Part shown: positions 481 to 24,025 of the stretch, one piece after another
Layout of the letters: the number at the start of each line of letters is the position of its first letter
How positions within the stretch are numbered: position 1 is the first letter of the stretch
Virus record (IMG/VR): IMGVR_UViG_3300038673_000987
Coordinates: 1 to 28,130 of that record
Source of the DNA: a virus
Lineage: Duplodnaviria > Caudoviricetes
Reading direction: 5' to 3' (one strand)
DNA length: 28,130 nt
The notes under the pieces: model-generated
Database searches by the model: none
What the model was told of the DNA's origin: nothing
What the model saw: only the letters and a program-made list of their open reading frames with translations
Made by a program: the position numbers and the translations under genes

Positions 481-520
481 ATCCTCAACCCGCCTGCAGG
501 TGTACGATGATTACCAGGAC

Positions 521-910
521 ATGAAAACAAGCGCCGTCATCCTGGCATTGCTGCTTCCGGCCATGGCGTGGGCCGCCGAAGACGCAATGACCGTACGCCT
601 TTTGACCTATATCGCAGGCGGCGAACGTGCGGCGGAAACGGCGACGGGGTATAGGATCGTCGCGCCGAGCGGGACGGTCATGGCGCGAAAGACGGGCTAT
701 GGCTGGAGGCTTGAACCGACGACAGGCTTCTCCGGGGCTGAAATCCGCGCGCACGGGACCGGCTGGATCGTTTCTTCCGGAGGGGAAAGAATAATCTACC
801 GGCGGACAACAGGCGGCTTCTCCGCAGAGCCAGGGCAGAGCCTCCGCGTGGGGCGGCTTGGCCGCACACTCGAACCCTCCGGAGTTGAAGCGCTGTTCTG
901 GCGGCGCTGA
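521..910 (+). CDS. Secreted hypothetical protein (129 aa), moron-like, antisense to the tail operon
   Basis: ATG at 521 with AGGA upstream; signal peptide MKTSAVILALLLPAMAWA; repeated short motifs (TATGY, TGYGW, GTGW, TTGGF); fills the gap between two minus-strand genes. Confidence 0.7.
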   Translation: MKTSAVILALLLPAMAWAAEDAMTVRLLTYIAGGERAAETATGYRIVAPSGTVMARKTGYGWRLEPTTGFSGAEIRAHGTGWIVSSGGERIIYRRTTGGFSAEPGQSLRVGRLGRTLEPSGVEALFWRR

Positions 911-4862: not shown

Positions 4863-5380
4863 CAGATGCCCTCCGGAATGGTAAGCTCGATTTCCTCGCC
4901 AGGCAGAACGATCGTCGAGTTCAGATCGAAAGAAAGGTTGTAGGCCGCAAGGAACAGCCCATCCGGAAGTGGCACTTTGTCGTCGCTGCCCTTGTAGATG
5001 AACCTATTGTTCTGAGCGTCTAGCCACGCAAACCGATAGGCAAGAACCCGCGCCCTCACGCTGCTCAGGATATCAAGCAGTGGCGTGCGCGAGGCCGTCC
5101 ATCGCACCAGCGCGATGTTTGGGATCGCCGTAGGGCCAAGGTTGCCGTCCAGGATGAAGCGGTAGCGGTTTGTTACGACGTTACCGCCGCGAACGCGCTC
5201 GTTGGGGTTCTCGTCGCCTTCCCAATGCAAAATCAGGCGCCAGCCGGTCGGAGGATCCTGCAGGAGCTTAAAGAGGTGATCAGGACCCGCTGAGATCGCG
5301 CACTGCCCACGGTTGCTTTTCGTCCACTCGTTAAGGTCGGCGAACAACGCGCCAAGGATGTCCGCTGGAGTGGTGATCAT
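4862..5380 (-). CDS. Putative tail terminator / Mu gp37-like protein (172 aa)
   Basis: Directly after the gp36-like gene with ATGA overlap; C-terminal AAYNLSF strand typical of terminator folds. Confidence 0.6.
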   Translation of the reverse strand: MITTPADILGALFADLNEWTKSNRGQCAISAGPDHLFKLLQDPPTGWRLILHWEGDENPNERVRGGNVVTNRYRFILDGNLGPTAIPNIALVRWTASRTPLLDILSSVRARVLAYRFAWLDAQNNRFIYKGSDDKVPLPDGLFLAAYNLSFDLNSTIVLPGEEIELTIPEGI

Positions 5381-5799
5381 ATCATCAGCCCCCCGGAAGA
5401 GTTGGTTGTCTTGGCGGCTTCTACGATGGCGCCCGCGGGTGTATCATCTACATCGGGCGGCACCAGCGTTTCTTCTCCGCGCGCAATGCGCTCAAGCCAC
5501 ACCATGGCGGGCTTGATCCACTGGTCATAGACGGACTTGGCGCGTTCGATTCCGCCGCGTCGAGTCCAAAGCGAATACTCCGCATACTTCACCGCGGAGT
5601 GCTTAAGGCGAGCGGGGATCGAGACGGGCAGCTCGATCCCCGCTTGCTGGAGGTATCCATTGATCCAGTTCAGCGCATCGTCGTGCACGGAGGCAAGGAG
5701 ACCGGAGTCCTCCGCCCCATCGCTGTCATCGTCAAGATGCAAGAGGAGGGATGCATCCTGTATTCCAGCGATGAGGTCGTTGCGGCTGAACAGTTCCAT
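5377..5799 (-). CDS. Mu gp36-like head-tail adaptor (DUF1320-like, 140 aa)
   Basis: Motifs WINGYL, LPVSIPARL, AMVWLERIARGE. Confidence 0.85.
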   Translation of the reverse strand: MELFSRNDLIAGIQDASLLLHLDDDSDGAEDSGLLASVHDDALNWINGYLQQAGIELPVSIPARLKHSAVKYAEYSLWTRRGGIERAKSVYDQWIKPAMVWLERIARGEETLVPPDVDDTPAGAIVEAAKTTNSSGGLMI

Positions 5800-5820: not shown

Positions 5821-6207
5821 TTAATCGAACACTTCGCCCTGCACGATCGCCACAATGGCATTCGTGCTGGTCAACTCGTCGCTGGTGATCTTGAAGTAGT
5901 CGCCGAAGAACATCTTCGGCACATGCGCCAACGAAACCTTCGCGGAGGCCACCACCACGCCGGATGAGACGGCGCCGGTGTAGCCTGCTGTCACATATTG
6001 GACGGTGGCTGTAACGCCAGCCGGGCCGGTCAGAAACATCACCTCCGGCGTGAACCTTCCGGTATCGCCGATCGGCGGTGTCGCGTTCGGCGCGTTGGTT
6101 GTAACACTCGTGGTGCTGCGCTGCGTGCCGAGATCGGCCGCCTGGGCGAAGATCGCAAACAACACGCACAGAACAACGAGTACCGCGACTGAAAACAGCT
6201 TCTTCAT
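5821..6207 (-). CDS. Signal-peptide-bearing protein in the head operon (128 aa), possible capsid decoration protein
   Basis: AAGGAG RBS; MKK + hydrophobic core + AQA cleavage motif; beta-rich mature part; directly after the capsid gene. Confidence 0.7.
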   Translation of the reverse strand: MKKLFSVAVLVVLCVLFAIFAQAADLGTQRSTTSVTTNAPNATPPIGDTGRFTPEVMFLTGPAGVTATVQYVTAGYTGAVSSGVVVASAKVSLAHVPKMFFGDYFKITSDELTSTNAIVAIVQGEVFD

Positions 6208-8223: not shown

Positions 8224-8260
8224 CTTGCCGGGTGATGGCGCTGGGGTCTAAAAACCGTGG

Positions 8261-8278
8261 GCTTTCTGCGCAGAAAGC
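8261..8278. repeat. Perfect 18-bp palindrome GCTTTCTGCGCAGAAAGC between gpG and gpI
   Basis: Read directly; immediately after the gpG stop. Confidence 0.7.
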
Positions 8279-18143: not shown

Positions 18144-18716
18144 ATGGCGGAAGATGTCGAATCGTTGGCCAAGGATCTTGGTTATAAAAATCGGCGGCGC
18201 TCGACTTATACGGCCCCCGCCATGGCTGGACTTTTCGGGTTGTTTGCCGGCATAAACGCAATAGGGGCGGCTGGGTGTTTTCTCGCATTTCTGTCAACGA
18301 AGGAAGGGGCATGGTACTCGTCGGTATGGATTCTATGGGCTCTTGCTTTCGTGGTTGGCTTTGTCGTCAACTTCGCCATCGCGCAAATCATTAACTGCAT
18401 TGGACGATCTGCACACTACACGGAGGAGATTGCGGACTTCCTTCACGATTACCGGCCGCCACAGAGCGAAGGCTACATCTTAAACGCGATTCTGGAAGAA
18501 CTCCGTGCGCTCAACAGAAAGACGGTATTGCCACAGGAAGAATCCGAGCCGACGCCTCCCGCCACGGAAACTGAGGTCAAGCCTCCGCCGCGCATCGAAA
18601 TCCCGTGCCCTGTCTGCCAGAAAACATTCAGCATTCTCGATCTGCCAGACAAGACGGAACACACATGCCCGCACTGCGGACAGATTGTGGAACTGGCGGA
18701 AGAACCGGCTCACTAA
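18144..18716 (+). CDS. Two-TM membrane protein with C-terminal zinc ribbon (190 aa)
   Basis: Two hydrophobic spans; CPVCQ...CPHCG. Confidence 0.8.
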   Translation: MAEDVESLAKDLGYKNRRRSTYTAPAMAGLFGLFAGINAIGAAGCFLAFLSTKEGAWYSSVWILWALAFVVGFVVNFAIAQIINCIGRSAHYTEEIADFLHDYRPPQSEGYILNAILEELRALNRKTVLPQEESEPTPPATETEVKPPPRIEIPCPVCQKTFSILDLPDKTEHTCPHCGQIVELAEEPAH

Positions 18717-18768
18717 AGATTCAAAGCCGCTTCAAACTGGAAGCTGAACAGAGGGGGAGATAACGCAC

Positions 18769-19668
18769 GTGCACACAATAGACTTCAGCAGCAGCCTATA
18801 CTACTCGAACCGGGAATTGATCCCTGTGCAGGACATGGCAACGGCGATGGTGGCCTATGGGCGAATCATCGAAATATCCGCGCCTGTCATTGCCAAACTG
18901 TCCGGGATCTCCGACCCGTTCGTGGTGCGGGTGTTCCTGAAAGAAATCCGGGCAGGAAGCGCAGACGAAGGTTTCATAAATAGGTTTGTGTTTAAGAATC
19001 AGAAAAGCAAAGATGCTTTCATTGACTGGCTGCGGAGGGTAACGCTCGTGGAACACCTTCAAGAAAAGAATCCGACACTCGGGAAGCTCTGGGCCTATAT
19101 TCTGGTGGGCGGCGCGATGTTTGCCGTAGGCCGCTACGGCCTTCCGAACCCCAAGAGCACGGTGCACATACAGGATGTTTCCTCCGCAATCATCAATGTG
19201 GGCGGAACCATCAACATCCCTCACGAATCCATTCAAGAAGCGATGTCTGCCGGCATTCGCAACAAGGCCGTGCTGGCTACAAACGCGGTGAAGGTTATCC
19301 GCCCGGCCAAACACGACGAACACGCGCTGATCCGCGTGGATAACAGAGATGAGTTAACCATTCCTCCGGAAGCCATCCGTGAGGTTCCGTCCATAATCGG
19401 CGAAGCCGAAGAGATACAGCAAACAAAGACGCTCACAGCCGTTCAAATCAGCGTCCGCGCGCTGGACCGGGACAGCACACAAAAGGGGTGGGCCGCCGTG
19501 GTGCCATCGTTTAGCGAGCGCCGCGCAAAACTCGAACTGGATCCATCCGTTGATTCTTCCGTCGTCGCGCGGAGCGAGATCCTATGCGGCGACATCGAGG
19601 CGAGCTACCGCCTTGATCAACGCGGGAATGAAGTCCCGAGGCGATATACCTTGCTGCGGATCAGGTAG
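18769..19668 (+). CDS. Hypothetical accessory protein (299 aa)
   Basis: Long ORF with purine-rich RBS, co-oriented with the repressor; no motif recognised. Confidence 0.75.
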   Translation: MHTIDFSSSLYYSNRELIPVQDMATAMVAYGRIIEISAPVIAKLSGISDPFVVRVFLKEIRAGSADEGFINRFVFKNQKSKDAFIDWLRRVTLVEHLQEKNPTLGKLWAYILVGGAMFAVGRYGLPNPKSTVHIQDVSSAIINVGGTINIPHESIQEAMSAGIRNKAVLATNAVKVIRPAKHDEHALIRVDNRDELTIPPEAIREVPSIIGEAEEIQQTKTLTAVQISVRALDRDSTQKGWAAVVPSFSERRAKLELDPSVDSSVVARSEILCGDIEASYRLDQRGNEVPRRYTLLRIR

Positions 19669-19673
19669 TGCCA

Positions 19674-20228
19674 TCAAACAGCGCTGCATCGGCGCAGGCG
19701 CGTCCGCACTTTCACCAACCGCGCATAGACATGTTGCCGGGTTAATCCAAGCCTGCGCGCCACTTGCTGCATGTTCAACCCTTTCAGCATAAGATCCACA
19801 ACCTCTCGCTGCTTCGGGGTCAGATCTGCGCGGGCCAGCCGCGCGCGGATATGCCGTTCGGAATCGCTTTCGGAAACCGCATCGGCGGCAGAGCCGCCTG
19901 GCGCGACCAGCACATCCGCCCATGTCAGCGCATCGTCGGTTGCTCCGCAAAGCGGCGACTCCATGCTGATATGCTGGTGGCGATATTCTTTCTCGATGGC
20001 TCTTTTGGCGCCATACGCGGCGCCGACCAGGCACCAGTTCCCGAGCGTCCGTCCGCCTCCCGGCGACCATTGCGCCTGCGCGGCCCATGCCGCAAGACGC
20101 GCTTCCTGGGCGAGATCGTCCGCATCAATCGCTGGAGGCAGTTCTCTCCCGCGATAGCGCCCGGCCACATGGGATCCAATGCGCAGGAGATCGTCGCTGG
20201 ATAGCTCGCCTTTCAGCGGCGCAATCAT
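19674..20228 (-). CDS. Sigma-70 family, ECF-like RNA polymerase sigma factor (184 aa)
   Basis: Region 2 DADDLAQEARLAAW, linker ISMESP, region 4 LTPKQREVV...GLNMQQVARRLGLTRQHV; ATGA-coupled to the upstream gene. Confidence 0.85.
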   Translation of the reverse strand: MIAPLKGELSSDDLLRIGSHVAGRYRGRELPPAIDADDLAQEARLAAWAAQAQWSPGGGRTLGNWCLVGAAYGAKRAIEKEYRHQHISMESPLCGATDDALTWADVLVAPGGSAADAVSESDSERHIRARLARADLTPKQREVVDLMLKGLNMQQVARRLGLTRQHVYARLVKVRTRLRRCSAV

Positions 20229-21013
20229 GGCTTGTTCGTCCAGGTCACGCCACCGACGTTGAATATGACCTGCGTGTTGGCGTGGTCGAAATAGATCGGA
20301 GCATTGGTTATCGCGTCCCAATTCAGCCCTTCAAGCCCGCCGCCGCCACCGCGAAATTCTGGTGCCTCCACGGGCAGGCTGATGTTCACGCGTGGGTTAA
20401 TGCCGGCCGTGATGCGCACATAGCCGCCGTCGTCCTCGGGCGGCACGTCAACACGCAAGAGGATCGTGTTCGCATCCACCACCGTCATGCCGTATTCGAC
20501 CTCGACCCACGGTCCGTTGATGATGTCCGTTGAATAGAGGACTACAGGCAAGGTGTTTGTATCTTCAACAATCATCGTTACGACGAGCTGGTCATTCGTT
20601 TTGTCGTACCAAGTGCTGCCGGTCTCGCCCAGCGGCTCGTAATCCGTAACGAATGTGAGGATGTTTTCCCCGTGCGCGCGGATGAAGAATATGCCGCTGC
20701 TGGCGCCAATGGAGTACGTGCGGCTCAGGTTTATCGGGTGGTTGTTCATGTTCAGAGGGTAATGGTAGTCCGTTGGCGGCGCGGTCAGTGCGCGAATGTC
20801 CAGCACCTGGACGCCGCCGGGTGTCACGCCATCGCCGATACGCAGATCGTGCAATGCGCCGGCATTCACTACGCCGACACCGAACGGTATGACGGTTTCC
20901 TGCAGTTCCTGTTCGGTCATGTCCTCGAACACGAGCCGCTTGACCGTGCTGGTTGTCCCGGCGAAACCGGCCTGTGCCAACAGCAGAACGATAAGCGTGA
21001 GTGTGCGTTTCAT
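20225..21013 (-). CDS. Signal-peptide-bearing fibre-like protein with Mtd_N-like motif (262 aa)
   Basis: MKRTLTLIVLLLAQAGFA signal; LRIGDGVTPGG motif; FRGGGGGLEGL fibre-type motif; ATGA-coupled on both sides. Confidence 0.7.
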   Translation of the reverse strand: MKRTLTLIVLLLAQAGFAGTTSTVKRLVFEDMTEQELQETVIPFGVGVVNAGALHDLRIGDGVTPGGVQVLDIRALTAPPTDYHYPLNMNNHPINLSRTYSIGASSGIFFIRAHGENILTFVTDYEPLGETGSTWYDKTNDQLVVTMIVEDTNTLPVVLYSTDIINGPWVEVEYGMTVVDANTILLRVDVPPEDDGGYVRITAGINPRVNISLPVEAPEFRGGGGGLEGLNWDAITNAPIYFDHANTQVIFNVGGVTWTNKP

Positions 21014-23055
21014 GGCGATGGTGGTGCGTTGTAATCCTGCCAAGCGGAGAGATTCACCCTGTTCACGTTTGTGTGGGTTCCGCCAAGCGCTGCAATGCGA
21101 TCCTCGATCTCGGCTAAAACATGCGTGACGGAGCTAATAACCATCGGCGAGGTCCATGTCCCCAAAAGGACCGTATTCGTCCCGATAATCAGGAAGCAAG
21201 GGCTTCCGCTGTCGCCGGGAATTGGATAACCGTAAGCTCCTGTGCGGACGGAAATGAATTGCGCATCCCATTCGGATGCAGGCGAGTGTGTTGCCGCCGG
21301 AAGCAACAATTCGTTTTGGTTAAGCCACATCAGCCGGATCAGCGAGTTTTCCAGGTATCCGGGATAGCCCTGGAGCCTGCCAAGGTCTTCAGCGTCGAGC
21401 ACCCGCGCAGGAACGATGCTCTCCGGCAGCGGAGAGTCCAAGCGGGCAACCGCGATGTCGGACTCAGTCCAAGTGCAGGATGCAGACACGCAGCGCTGGT
21501 CTATCAGAGTTCTCGTGTGGAGGCCGTTCGTCGGGTCAACGAACAGAAATTCAGTCCCCACCGGAGCCATATAATGCGTCGCGTAAAGCATATGTTCGCG
21601 CGTAACGAGCGTTCCGGCTCGATAGCGCCCGCTGAATGTGTTCGATGGCGACGCGCAGGAGAGGTCAACCGCTGCAGCCCAGAGGTTTGTATTCAGGATC
21701 CACCCCTCTGAAAAGACGTTCACCTCCTTTGCCGGCAGGGTCGCCTCGCGCGCGATAGCGGAGGTGTTTATCATCGCGCGCAGGCTTCCAGCCACATCTG
21801 AACCCCACGTCCAATTCGTCCATGTTGCCGTCGTGCCGGGATAGATTATTTCCGTCGTCCGCTGAAAGTCTCCCAGTGTAGAAACCACGGTTCCTGTGTC
21901 TCCGAGTTCGACCCCGTCTCCCCATAGAGCGACCCACGTTGAGTTTGTGTAAACGACCGTCAAAAGCGCGGCTCCAACGTGCTGGACATCAGAATCTGGT
22001 GCGCTCATACGAAGGATGTTTGGGTGCAGGCTATACCCTGGCTCCGTGCTGCGAAGCACCTGCACGGCCAACACAGAGTTGAACCGTTGCGTGGCGATCT
22101 GTGAGAGCACGTTGTAGCCATATGGTTGCGTCGAAAGGGTGAACCAATCCGGGTGGTACGGACCGCCGACGCTGACCACATAAACGTTTGTCATATACCC
22201 CGCATCCGCGTGATCCCCCCATGAATGCGCTTCGGTCCATTCGCCTGTCGGCCAAAGCTCTACCGCATCAATTCGGCTTTCCACCGCTGCCACGCGGGCC
22301 GTCGGCGCATACCCCGCCGCCGCGTGATCCCCCCATGAATGCGCCTCGCTCCATTCGCCGGTCGGCCAAAGCTCCACGGCATCAATTCGGTTTTCCGCCG
22401 CTGCCACGCGGGCCGTCGGCGCGTAGCCCGCCGTCGCGTGATCCCCCCAAACAAATGCCGCATCCCATTGGTCAAGACGGTTCGACGTTATTTCGGCGGC
22501 AACACTGTCCATAAAGGTTGGATCCAACTCCTCGGTTATGAAGCCGAACAGCTCGCCGGGGTCATACGTGAGGGGCCCTCGGTATTCGGTATACCGCTCG
22601 TCAGGCGCGTAGCGCACGGTCAGCGATTGGACAACGGCAACACTACGCCCCGATACGTTCGTGCCGTCAAGCGTGAGCAGGCGCACGAAGCCATAGTATT
22701 GGCCTGGCTCCAGGATGGATTCCTCGTGGTCCAGGCCCATCCGGACAACCCCACCGGACGGGTCAACGACATCCACCGTTTTTGCGATCCACGTCTGGTA
22801 CAGGTTCGTCGCGGACACCACATCCCAGACGATTGCGAGATTTGTAGCGGACAAGTCGAGCGGGACTTGGTTGGTGTGGAGGGCATACTCAAGCTCAACC
22901 GTTTCGCCCTGCCGCCATCCAAATACATGCCGCGCGCCTTCGCGGCCTGCGTCCCAGGCCACCGATGTTGAGCGCAAGACAGGGGCGTCTGCAAGGCATG
23001 CTGTAACCGACAGCAGAGACAGCATTCCGACGGATGCAACAGCGCGCAGGTTCAT
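21010..23055 (-). CDS. Exported fibre-like protein: signal + BppU-like N-domain + WGDH repeats + trypsin-like serine protease (681 aa)
   Basis: Signal or lipobox (VTAC); RQGETVELEYAL...PLDLS...EPGQY; repeats; protease motifs ATHY, SDIAV, GDSGSP. Confidence 0.78.
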   Translation of the reverse strand: MNLRAVASVGMLSLLSVTACLADAPVLRSTSVAWDAGREGARHVFGWRQGETVELEYALHTNQVPLDLSATNLAIVWDVVSATNLYQTWIAKTVDVVDPSGGVVRMGLDHEESILEPGQYYGFVRLLTLDGTNVSGRSVAVVQSLTVRYAPDERYTEYRGPLTYDPGELFGFITEELDPTFMDSVAAEITSNRLDQWDAAFVWGDHATAGYAPTARVAAAENRIDAVELWPTGEWSEAHSWGDHAAAGYAPTARVAAVESRIDAVELWPTGEWTEAHSWGDHADAGYMTNVYVVSVGGPYHPDWFTLSTQPYGYNVLSQIATQRFNSVLAVQVLRSTEPGYSLHPNILRMSAPDSDVQHVGAALLTVVYTNSTWVALWGDGVELGDTGTVVSTLGDFQRTTEIIYPGTTATWTNWTWGSDVAGSLRAMINTSAIAREATLPAKEVNVFSEGWILNTNLWAAAVDLSCASPSNTFSGRYRAGTLVTREHMLYATHYMAPVGTEFLFVDPTNGLHTRTLIDQRCVSASCTWTESDIAVARLDSPLPESIVPARVLDAEDLGRLQGYPGYLENSLIRLMWLNQNELLLPAATHSPASEWDAQFISVRTGAYGYPIPGDSGSPCFLIIGTNTVLLGTWTSPMVISSVTHVLAEIEDRIAALGGTHTNVNRVNLSAWQDYNAPPSP
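22196..22449. repeat. 114-bp tandem repeat (about 2.2 copies; 38-aa WGDHAxAGY unit)
   Basis: CGCGTGATCCCCCCA recurs at 22207, 22321 and 22435. Confidence 0.92.
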
Positions 23056-23201
23056 GCGCTTGATGCTCCGTCAATACGCGCAATTCATCCATTTGGCGTG
23101 GGGGTTATGGGCCCGAAGCCCCCCCCGGTTGGGGCACCGCCCGGCGCCGGCGTTTAGTTGCGGGAGGCCCACGACAATTATAAACGCGTGAGGAATAATT
23201 C

Positions 23202-23483
23202 ATGACAGAAGTCTCTGCTCCGCTCATGACCGTGGCCGTCCTGTTCGTTCTGACCCAAATCGTCAGCGTAATTACAGACATAACCTCGATTCGGCGGAAC
23301 ACGGCGAGAACACCCCCTTTGGATCAGGAGATTTATAAAGACTTCGCCACAAAGGCTGAGGTCGCGCGGCTTGAGGGCAAAATGGACGCGCTGATCTCCT
23401 CCTCCAATGAGGCGCTCCGAGACATGACGAAGAGCATTTCCGAACTCACTGGAATGGTTCGAGAGCACTTAAGGCAGCACTGA
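23202..23483 (+). CDS. Membrane-anchored coiled-coil protein, Mu gp25/DUF2730-like (93 aa)
   Basis: GAGGA RBS; N-terminal TM; FATKAEVARLEGKMD; upstream of gp26/gp27. Confidence 0.65.
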   Translation: MTEVSAPLMTVAVLFVLTQIVSVITDITSIRRNTARTPPLDQEIYKDFATKAEVARLEGKMDALISSSNEALRDMTKSISELTGMVREHLRQH

Positions 23484-23485
23484 CC

Positions 23486-24025
23486 ATGATCTTCCTCTAT
23501 AAAGGCATCAGCCCTATTTCACGCGCGATTGTGTTCAGAACAAGGGTCTCATCCTGGCTGCCAGACGAACTGGCCTATAGCCATGCGGCATGGGGCACCA
23601 GCGATACAACCGTGGTTGAAGCGTGGAAAGACGGGGTGAGAGAGGTCCAATTCGAGAGAGATCACAGGCCTGGGACGATTGTTGATCTCTATCACATCAA
23701 TCTCGCTCGCGAGCAGGTTGAGGGCATCAACGATTTTCTCCGCGCCCAAATTGGGAAGCCTTACGATTGGCTCGGCATACTTGGGTTCCTTGTCCGTTCC
23801 GATCGAGCCCACAGAAAAACCAAGTGGTTCTGCTCTGAACTAATTGCAGAGGCGCTCGATCTGGTCGGGAAGCCGTTGCTCTCGCGCTGCCCGGCGCATC
23901 GCATGCTTCCGGGCATGATCGCACTCTCTCCATATCTTGAATACGCTGGAACCCGCATTTGTCGCGCCCAGGCAACGTCCGCCGCCTCGGTGGACCTTAC
24001 TGGAGCGTTTCCGTGCATCACGTAA
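23486..24025 (+). CDS. Permuted papain-like NlpC/P60 (YiiX/YaeF-like) hydrolase (179 aa)
   Basis: YSHA (His), GKPYDWLG, WFCSELIA (Cys), in His-before-Cys order. Confidence 0.88.
   Translation: MIFLYKGISPISRAIVFRTRVSSWLPDELAYSHAAWGTSDTTVVEAWKDGVREVQFERDHRPGTIVDLYHINLAREQVEGINDFLRAQIGKPYDWLGILGFLVRSDRAHRKTKWFCSELIAEALDLVGKPLLSRCPAHRMLPGMIALSPYLEYAGTRICRAQATSAASVDLTGAFPCIT

Follow-up and report, generated by a model that had tools for sequence, protein, structure and literature searches.

Known counterparts and conserved predicted export signals

Assembly of tailed phages is generally assumed to be entirely cytoplasmic, and their structural proteins normally carry no signal peptides; on that assumption, phage genes with signals are commonly annotated as cargo of lysogenic conversion. 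The coat proteins pIII and pVIII of filamentous phages are made with signal peptides, and those phages are extruded through the membrane. The stretch analysed here (28,130 nucleotides of IMG/VR record IMGVR_UViG_3300038673_000987; the window) resembles them in encoding putative virion proteins with signals, but differs by its portal, terminase, capsid and tape measure. The proteins in question are P0001, a fibre-like serine protease, P0002, its Mtd-like partner, and P0003, a cement-like protein encoded after the capsid gene.

The baseplate upper protein BppU of TP901-1 (open reading frame (ORF) 48, PDB 4v96) and the NF5 chain 9m8o_P have, like P0001, a beta-sandwich followed by a stalk. BppU, however, has neither a leader nor a sequence match to P0001, which carries WGDH repeats and a protease in addition to its signal. 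Mtd, from Bordetella phage BPP-1, may resemble P0002 in its N-terminal domain (HH probability 91.9) and does so in the position of its gene directly behind a fibre gene. In the leaderless fibres aligned, Mtd_N starts at Met1, whereas P0002 begins with a signal and did not match Mtd beyond that domain. Capsid cement proteins (the KHP40 trimer, 7dou, and Bbp16 of BPP-1) are, like P0003, small jelly rolls whose genes directly follow that of the capsid, but the scores were weak, no Bbp16 profile match was obtained, and P0003 has a leader. One source (PMC10769870) describes the MAT fibres of Bdellovibrio as phage-fibre-like proteins in which a signal peptide precedes a conserved beta-rich domain, an arrangement comparable to that of the proteins here. 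MATs, however, belong to the host and carry a chaperone-protease of the S74 type, whereas the relatives of P0001 and P0002 lie in prophage virion operons and the protease is of the trypsin fold; no S74 match was found for P0001 or P0002, and the locus is a prophage.

Signals were called with a heuristic rule of our own (the Sec rule), which looked for a basic n-region, a hydrophobic core and a small-x-small site (small residues at -3 and -1). Exactly P0001, P0002 and P0003 were flagged among the 43 called window genes, and all three had the sequence features of Sec/signal peptidase I (SPI) substrates by this rule and by conservation among homologues. The rule was crude, with three signal-like proteins missed and a few core genes flagged in relatives. 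A plain hydrophobicity scan of the 32 genes of at least 90 residues added two, the holin-like gene at 23202 and the antisense gene at 500-910. The sequence-only reading had placed export signals at the start of both large genes of an ATGA-coupled operon and in a third gene after the capsid gene. The quoted N-termini were confirmed on the minus strand (starts at 23055 and 21013), the overlaps were present at 21010-21013 and 20225-20228, and the third gene (5821-6207) was flagged by the Sec rule. Cleavage was predicted after residues 24 (P0001) and 15 (P0002) by the rule and after 22 and 18 in the sequence-only reading; therefore, the exact sites are not fixed.

Conservation was stronger evidence for the signals than the rule. 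For P0001, 49 of the 54 matches sharing the non-repeat domains were counted, five N-terminally partial ones being left out. An N-terminal hydrophobic stretch was found in 31 of them (P0145 is probably false), an internal one in five gp36 fusions and none in 13, which comprised two just below the threshold, two rich in Thr-Asn without a clear leader and nine distant protease-only proteins. All nine aligned P0002 members, the window's included, had a signal. A leader was present in 13 of the 14 P0003 search matches; the exception, a 97-residue entry starting inside the mature part, was left out of the alignment, in which all 27 members had leaders that varied, with Ala23 nearly invariant and the mature start conserved. 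Homologues thus keep the signal, and on these alignments the predicted signals are real and conserved across the P0001, P0002 and post-capsid families, so P0001, P0002 and P0003 are likely made outside the cytoplasm. Misassigned starts were rejected because an AAGGAG ribosome site lies 5 nt ahead of the P0003 ATG and homologues carry leaders. A small antisense, moron-like gene was seen inside the tail region of the window (500-910, plus strand), L017 (15920-16366) and L041 (3143-3367); its start is signal-like and its Thr-Asn count is 0-1.

Domains and genomic context of the putatively exported proteins

P0001 was modelled from 32 sequences with a mean predicted local distance difference test (pLDDT) score of 78.8. 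The model contained a leader helix, a beta-sandwich, a poor WGDH stretch (pLDDT <50 at residues 184-302, as a monomer), then another beta domain and the C-terminal domain, and showed neither a membrane anchor nor a barrel. The top Foldseek rows were trypsin-family proteases (E about 2e-8). His494, Asp533 and Ser616 were invariant in 32/32 aligned sequences, and hence the protease is likely active. With a chymotrypsin fold and a His-Asp-Ser triad, the domain belongs to the trypsin-like serine proteases. Rather than a plain fibre, P0001 is a fibre-like protease; the protease domain had escaped the sequence-only reading.

A BppU-like N-domain, as proposed earlier, was supported by fold and not by sequence. 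The sole non-protease entries among 50 Foldseek rows were 9m8o_P (NF5 baseplate, E 2.3e-7) and 4v96_AL (TP901-1 baseplate, E 2.6e-7), the latter of the same length as BppU. The immunoglobulin (Ig)-like domain is, on the model, likely the part of P0001 that matches these baseplate upper proteins, whose beta-sandwich fold it has. BppU_N (PF10651) gave no Pfam match (one homologue reached E 0.0012, below the cut-off), the single-sequence comparison with TP901-1 BppU an HH probability of 0.07, and the comparison of the N-domain with leaderless adaptors a probability of 2.5. The WGDH fibre repeats were confirmed in three copies, and they matched 26 phage records, mostly cyanophage tail fibres. Close relatives of P0001 were not found in viral contigs, and it had no PDB match by sequence.

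In the P0002 family about 200 residues were common and the C-terminal parts varied among relatives; the window protein is short and lacks their variable tip. For the claimed Mtd-like N-terminus, pairwise profile-profile comparison of the mature N-terminus with nine aligned sequences of Mtd_N type gave a probability of 91.9 (E 6.8e-7, 47 columns), and eight family members ranked in the top 10 of 935 proteins. Pfam gave Mtd_N (PF18454) at E 0.16 at best, in one of nine members, and single-sequence comparison of P0002 with Mtd a probability <1. No close relatives of P0002 were found in the protein search or Atlas, and its profile gave only weak Ig-type rows against the PDB. A 1177-residue signal-bearing protein of a non-Mu prophage (L076 8928-12461), with 29 Thr-Asn, was partly similar to P0002. 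The P0003 model was a beta jelly roll (pLDDT 87), which together with the gene position corresponds to cement/decoration proteins. KHP40 7dou was its top Foldseek row. The nearest Atlas clusters were 98-100% viral (scores 0.91-0.92), and the nearest named one carried Bbp16 on 21% of members (score 0.76); P0003 and Bbp16 gave no profile match and a single-sequence probability <1. The post-capsid leaders of L003 (10956-11369) and L016 (11008-11400) look similar to prepilin N-termini.

The genome search with P0002 gave nine matches in 8 of 401 genomes. A P0001 relative lay just upstream in eight of the nine (about 0.9 kb away in L072); the ninth was partial and in another kind of phage. The pair stood among head, neck or tail genes in six of the eight relatives (L040, L041, L071, L072, L073, L075), where neighbours were named partly by BLAST to window genes and partly by reading, the other two contigs being too short to tell. 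The pair has moved to its own operon in the window prophage. The coupled sigma-70-like gene (19674-20228), whose identity had escaped the sequence-only reading, was not found by tblastn in L001-L020.

Fusions with gp36 gave a further tie to the virion. P0030, P0035, P0051 and P0101 began with a full gp36 domain over the Pfam cut-off; behind it, in the same frame, came a hydrophobic stretch, a site of small residues and then the fibre-protease. P0166 is a fifth fusion, cut at its start. P0030 is encoded at L073 1982-4207, directly behind the capsid gene and ahead of a P0002 relative. Its junction has no stop and a weak internal TTG start as a possible alternative, and the fusion was seen at the DNA level for P0030 alone. 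Close relatives of P0051 were not found. As gp36 belongs to the core proteins of the neck, production of the fibre-protease would be part of the virion programme in the fusion phages. Cleavage of a fusion would leave gp36 with a hydrophobic tail, and one reading frame would yield a cytoplasmic neck protein and an exported fibre, which makes the fusions a sharp test case of export.

Thr-Asn bias and proposed assembly outside the cytoplasm

A Thr-Asn bias, which had escaped the sequence-only reading, was found in the signal-bearing proteins. Pooled over 39 signal-bearing virion-module proteins from 19 loci, Thr-Asn occurred 228 times against 58.6 expected (3.9x), 42% of Asn followed Thr, and Ser-Asn occurred 68 times against 43.7. 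The value for 188 leaderless virion-module proteins was 129 against 102.7 (1.26x), and the three of these with at least four Thr-Asn look like missed signals. P0001 had 11 against 2.4 expected, a count reached in 0 of 10,000 shuffles. Ten leaderless adaptors had 8 against 7.0, and nine leaderless proteases, which may come from other host groups, 16 against 22.6. Furthermore, three of four gp36 fusions had zero Thr-Asn in the gp36 part and 7-12 behind the internal signal, and the antisense exported gene at 500-910 had none. Our guess from these counts is that Thr-Asn may be an acceptor for a host envelope enzyme, perhaps in glycosylation. The canonical N-glycosylation sequon was rejected (N-X-S/T 98 against 97.2 expected). 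A disulphide rationale for export was rejected too: Cys made up 0.65% against 0.64%, and the mature Cys count was zero in two of the three window proteins. Cysteines are not enriched; therefore, this rationale fails for this family, and maturation through disulphides seems unlikely. Two host surface-type proteins, at L044 5500-7230 and a 1140-residue one in the G185 stretches, were rich in Thr-Asn.

The leaders might instead stay uncleaved and anchor assembly intermediates to the inner membrane, with nothing released to the periplasm. Cleavage is predicted only, and the hydrophobic stretch of the gp36 fusions is internal, without a close basic n-region, both of which agree with anchoring. The small residues at the site and the mature start are conserved, however, the leaders vary as signals do, and Thr-Asn lies only behind the leaders. 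Anchoring was considered very improbable.

On balance, with substantial doubt, the pair is probably a fibre-like serine protease and an Mtd-like partner, made late, exported, modified at Thr-Asn outside the cytoplasm and docking at lysis. We infer the following course. P0001 and P0002 would be synthesized late in infection, exported by Sec and cleaved from their signals. A host envelope enzyme would then modify them at Thr-Asn, and they would attach to the particle at cell lysis. The Ig-like domain may dock on the tail or neck, P0002 may hang on the fibre as Mtd does in BPP-1, and the P0003 jelly roll may coat the capsid. On the next host, the protease might cut a protein layer and help the particle through a protein coat. 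The virion-type domains start right after the signal in P0001 and P0002, and at Met1 in leaderless fibres. The sequence-only reading had suggested export to the periplasm, maturation there and addition to particles at lysis. Its export step and a tie to the virion programme were supported by the conserved signals, the virion operons (6/8), the five gp36 fusions and the cement-like P0003; maturation and addition at lysis are kept here as proposed steps.

Late control was explored through a palindromic element (Table 1). The 23-base stretch that holds it recurred in run X1 at about 23097-23124. The window differed from X1 at 16 positions within 23103-23170, with loose ends at the palindrome, and the window letters there are likely an assembly error at the hairpin. 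Phage Mu has late promoters ahead of its lysis and protease genes, and a shared late site is therefore plausible. A promoter scan gave matches at chance level.

Several observations weigh against assembly outside the cytoplasm. The palindrome repeat comes from one run, X1, possibly the source of the window DNA itself, and the palindrome was not found in the 87 loci searched. A short leaderless adaptor or fibre is retained in several relatives; export therefore does not extend to all fibre-like parts. The best solved fold for P0003, the KHP40 cement protein, was weak and generic (E 2.6e-3, template modelling (TM) score 0.46), and the post-capsid gene was absent from L017, which makes P0003 accessory. 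The pooled Thr-Asn counts combine homologues over ranges chosen by the analyst; singly, P0002 and P0003 were not significant (p 0.08 and 0.06). P0027 and P0043 were rich in Thr-Asn without a clear leader, and general host secreted proteins were not rich (x0.98 in 28, x1.42 in 15). STT3 exceeded the cut-off in only one of five incomplete host genomes, and the tail-distal genes of the prophage are cut off at position 1 of the window.

Other points against it touch on a further explanation, also raised by the sequence-only reading, that the fibre domains were converted into lysogen surface adhesins serving the host, like the MAT fibres of Bdellovibrio. The window pair lies in its own operon with the sigma-like gene, away from the tail genes and back to back with the lysis genes, which keeps this explanation alive. 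By sequence profile the N-domain of P0001 best matched a streptococcal Siglec-like adhesin domain (E 4.6e-5), closer than BppU. Of 95 proteins matching the WGDH repeats only, 37 were signal-bearing and not viral-looking, and many resembled bacterial secreted proteins; hence, the repeat is no proof of a virion role. Some host surface-type proteins are also Thr-Asn rich, and in MATs a beta-rich domain comes after a signal (PMC10769870). The explanation is weakened by the position of the pair in virion operons of six of eight relatives and by the gp36 fusions, which tie its synthesis to a core virion protein. Moreover, P0001 has no modelled anchor or barrel, and the more typical moron, the antisense exported gene, lacks Thr-Asn. 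We give it a small chance.

The proteins could also be late exported factors that act on the infected-cell envelope or are freed at lysis, in clearing of the surface layer (S-layer) or matrix or in receptor shielding, and not on the particle. This is unlikely, though less so than the adhesin role. The intact triad, the divergence of the pair's operon from the holin-peptidase operon, the fit of export with envelope targets and the short window P0002 would agree with it; it does not account for the conserved pairing, for domains of docking type at the start of the mature proteins or for a cement-like protein encoded behind the capsid.

Assembly outside the cytoplasm may be extended, tentatively, to particles of two compartments. 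Capsid and tail would be cytoplasmic, and cement, fibres and the fibre-borne protease would come through Sec, be tagged at a Thr-Asn sequon by a host enzyme and be snapped on at lysis. The virion would be coated with host glycans, and fused gp36 would be tethered to the inner membrane after cleavage. This extension was considered possible but doubtful. The domains are of known kinds, and an export route for tailed-phage virion parts was not found described; a literature search, with most subscription papers outside its reach, gave no paper on signal-bearing tailed-phage virion proteins or the Thr-Asn motif. New in this analysis are the protease on a fibre-like protein, the fusions with gp36 and, for Thr-Asn, the comparison with leaderless proteins. 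If the proteins are on particles, tailed-phage assembly would have a second, extracytoplasmic stage, and annotation rules would misfile real receptor-binding parts. The Thr-Asn bias, if true, would offer a reason for export other than disulphides and point to an unstudied envelope modification.

Prophage setting and further features

Judged by its matches, the window covers most of a transposable prophage of the Mu type. Pfam and PHROG matches covered transposase A and B, Gam, gpF, gpG, protease, capsid, gp36, tape measure, terminase and Mu portal; Mu portal, gpF, gpI protease, gp36, Gam and transposase A and B mark it as a Mu-like transposable phage. The transposase A match was E 3e-8 by PHROG and weak by Pfam. 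The host is likely a member of Verrucomicrobiota, and the relatives reached through the capsid (L005, L006) come from uncultured Verrucomicrobiota. Three related virus records share its layout, with lysis, terminase and portal genes in a leftward operon and early genes followed by head and tail genes in a rightward run. The virus record stops within the tail region, so the tail-distal genes are only partly visible; the run X1 contig extends ~3.5 kb past position 1. The coordinates of the features are given in Table 1.

Table 1. Positions of the features discussed, with structural or supporting remarks.
Feature	Position	Strand	Remarks
Mu gp36 head-tail adaptor	5377-5799	-	stand-alone in window; fused to P0001 homologue in five relatives
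P0003	5821-6207	-	128 residues; predicted signal and beta jelly roll, cement/decoration-like; between capsid and gp36 genes
Palindromic element upstream of protease-capsid genes; possible late control site	8256-8278		palindrome proper 8262-8277
Sigma-70-like regulator (regions 2 and 4)	19674-20228	-	Pfam PF04542 and PF04545 over cut-off; ATGA-coupled, no signal
P0002	20225-21013	-	262 residues; predicted signal, Mtd_N-like domain at mature N-terminus, conserved 200-residue core
P0001	21010-23055	-	681 residues; predicted signal, Ig-like N-domain, three WGDH repeats, beta domain, trypsin-fold serine protease; 11 Thr-Asn
Chymotrypsin-fold protease domain of P0001, His494-Asp533-Ser616	21076-21738	-	triad conservation; Foldseek
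Three WGDH repeats of P0001, likely stalk	22186-22473	-	phrog_9729 tail fibre, E 1e-18
Ig-like beta-sandwich of P0001 (residues about 28-148)	22612-22974	-	pLDDT >90; Foldseek 4v96_AL, 9m8o_P
Predicted Sec signal of P0001 (about residues 1-22)	22990-23055	-	Sec rule; leaders in full-length homologues L040, L041, L071, L075
Second palindrome copy between P0001 and lysis-terminase operon	23097-23124		seen in run X1; window letters disagree

Close relatives of the terminase were not found in a search with it, and no retroelement was seen in the window. A canonical endolysin had no match anywhere in the window; a permuted papain-like (C92) peptidase at 23486-24025, a weak Pfam match behind the holin-like gene, is a possible lysis enzyme. 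One run X4 contig skipped the gene at 18144-18716 (seen at 18146-18770); with a short side, it may represent another strain. A short remnant of one gp37 type lay ahead of a full gp37 of another type in L010 (4707-5383) and L005 (3202-3878), and these remnants mark an exchange of tail modules downstream of a head module common to both.

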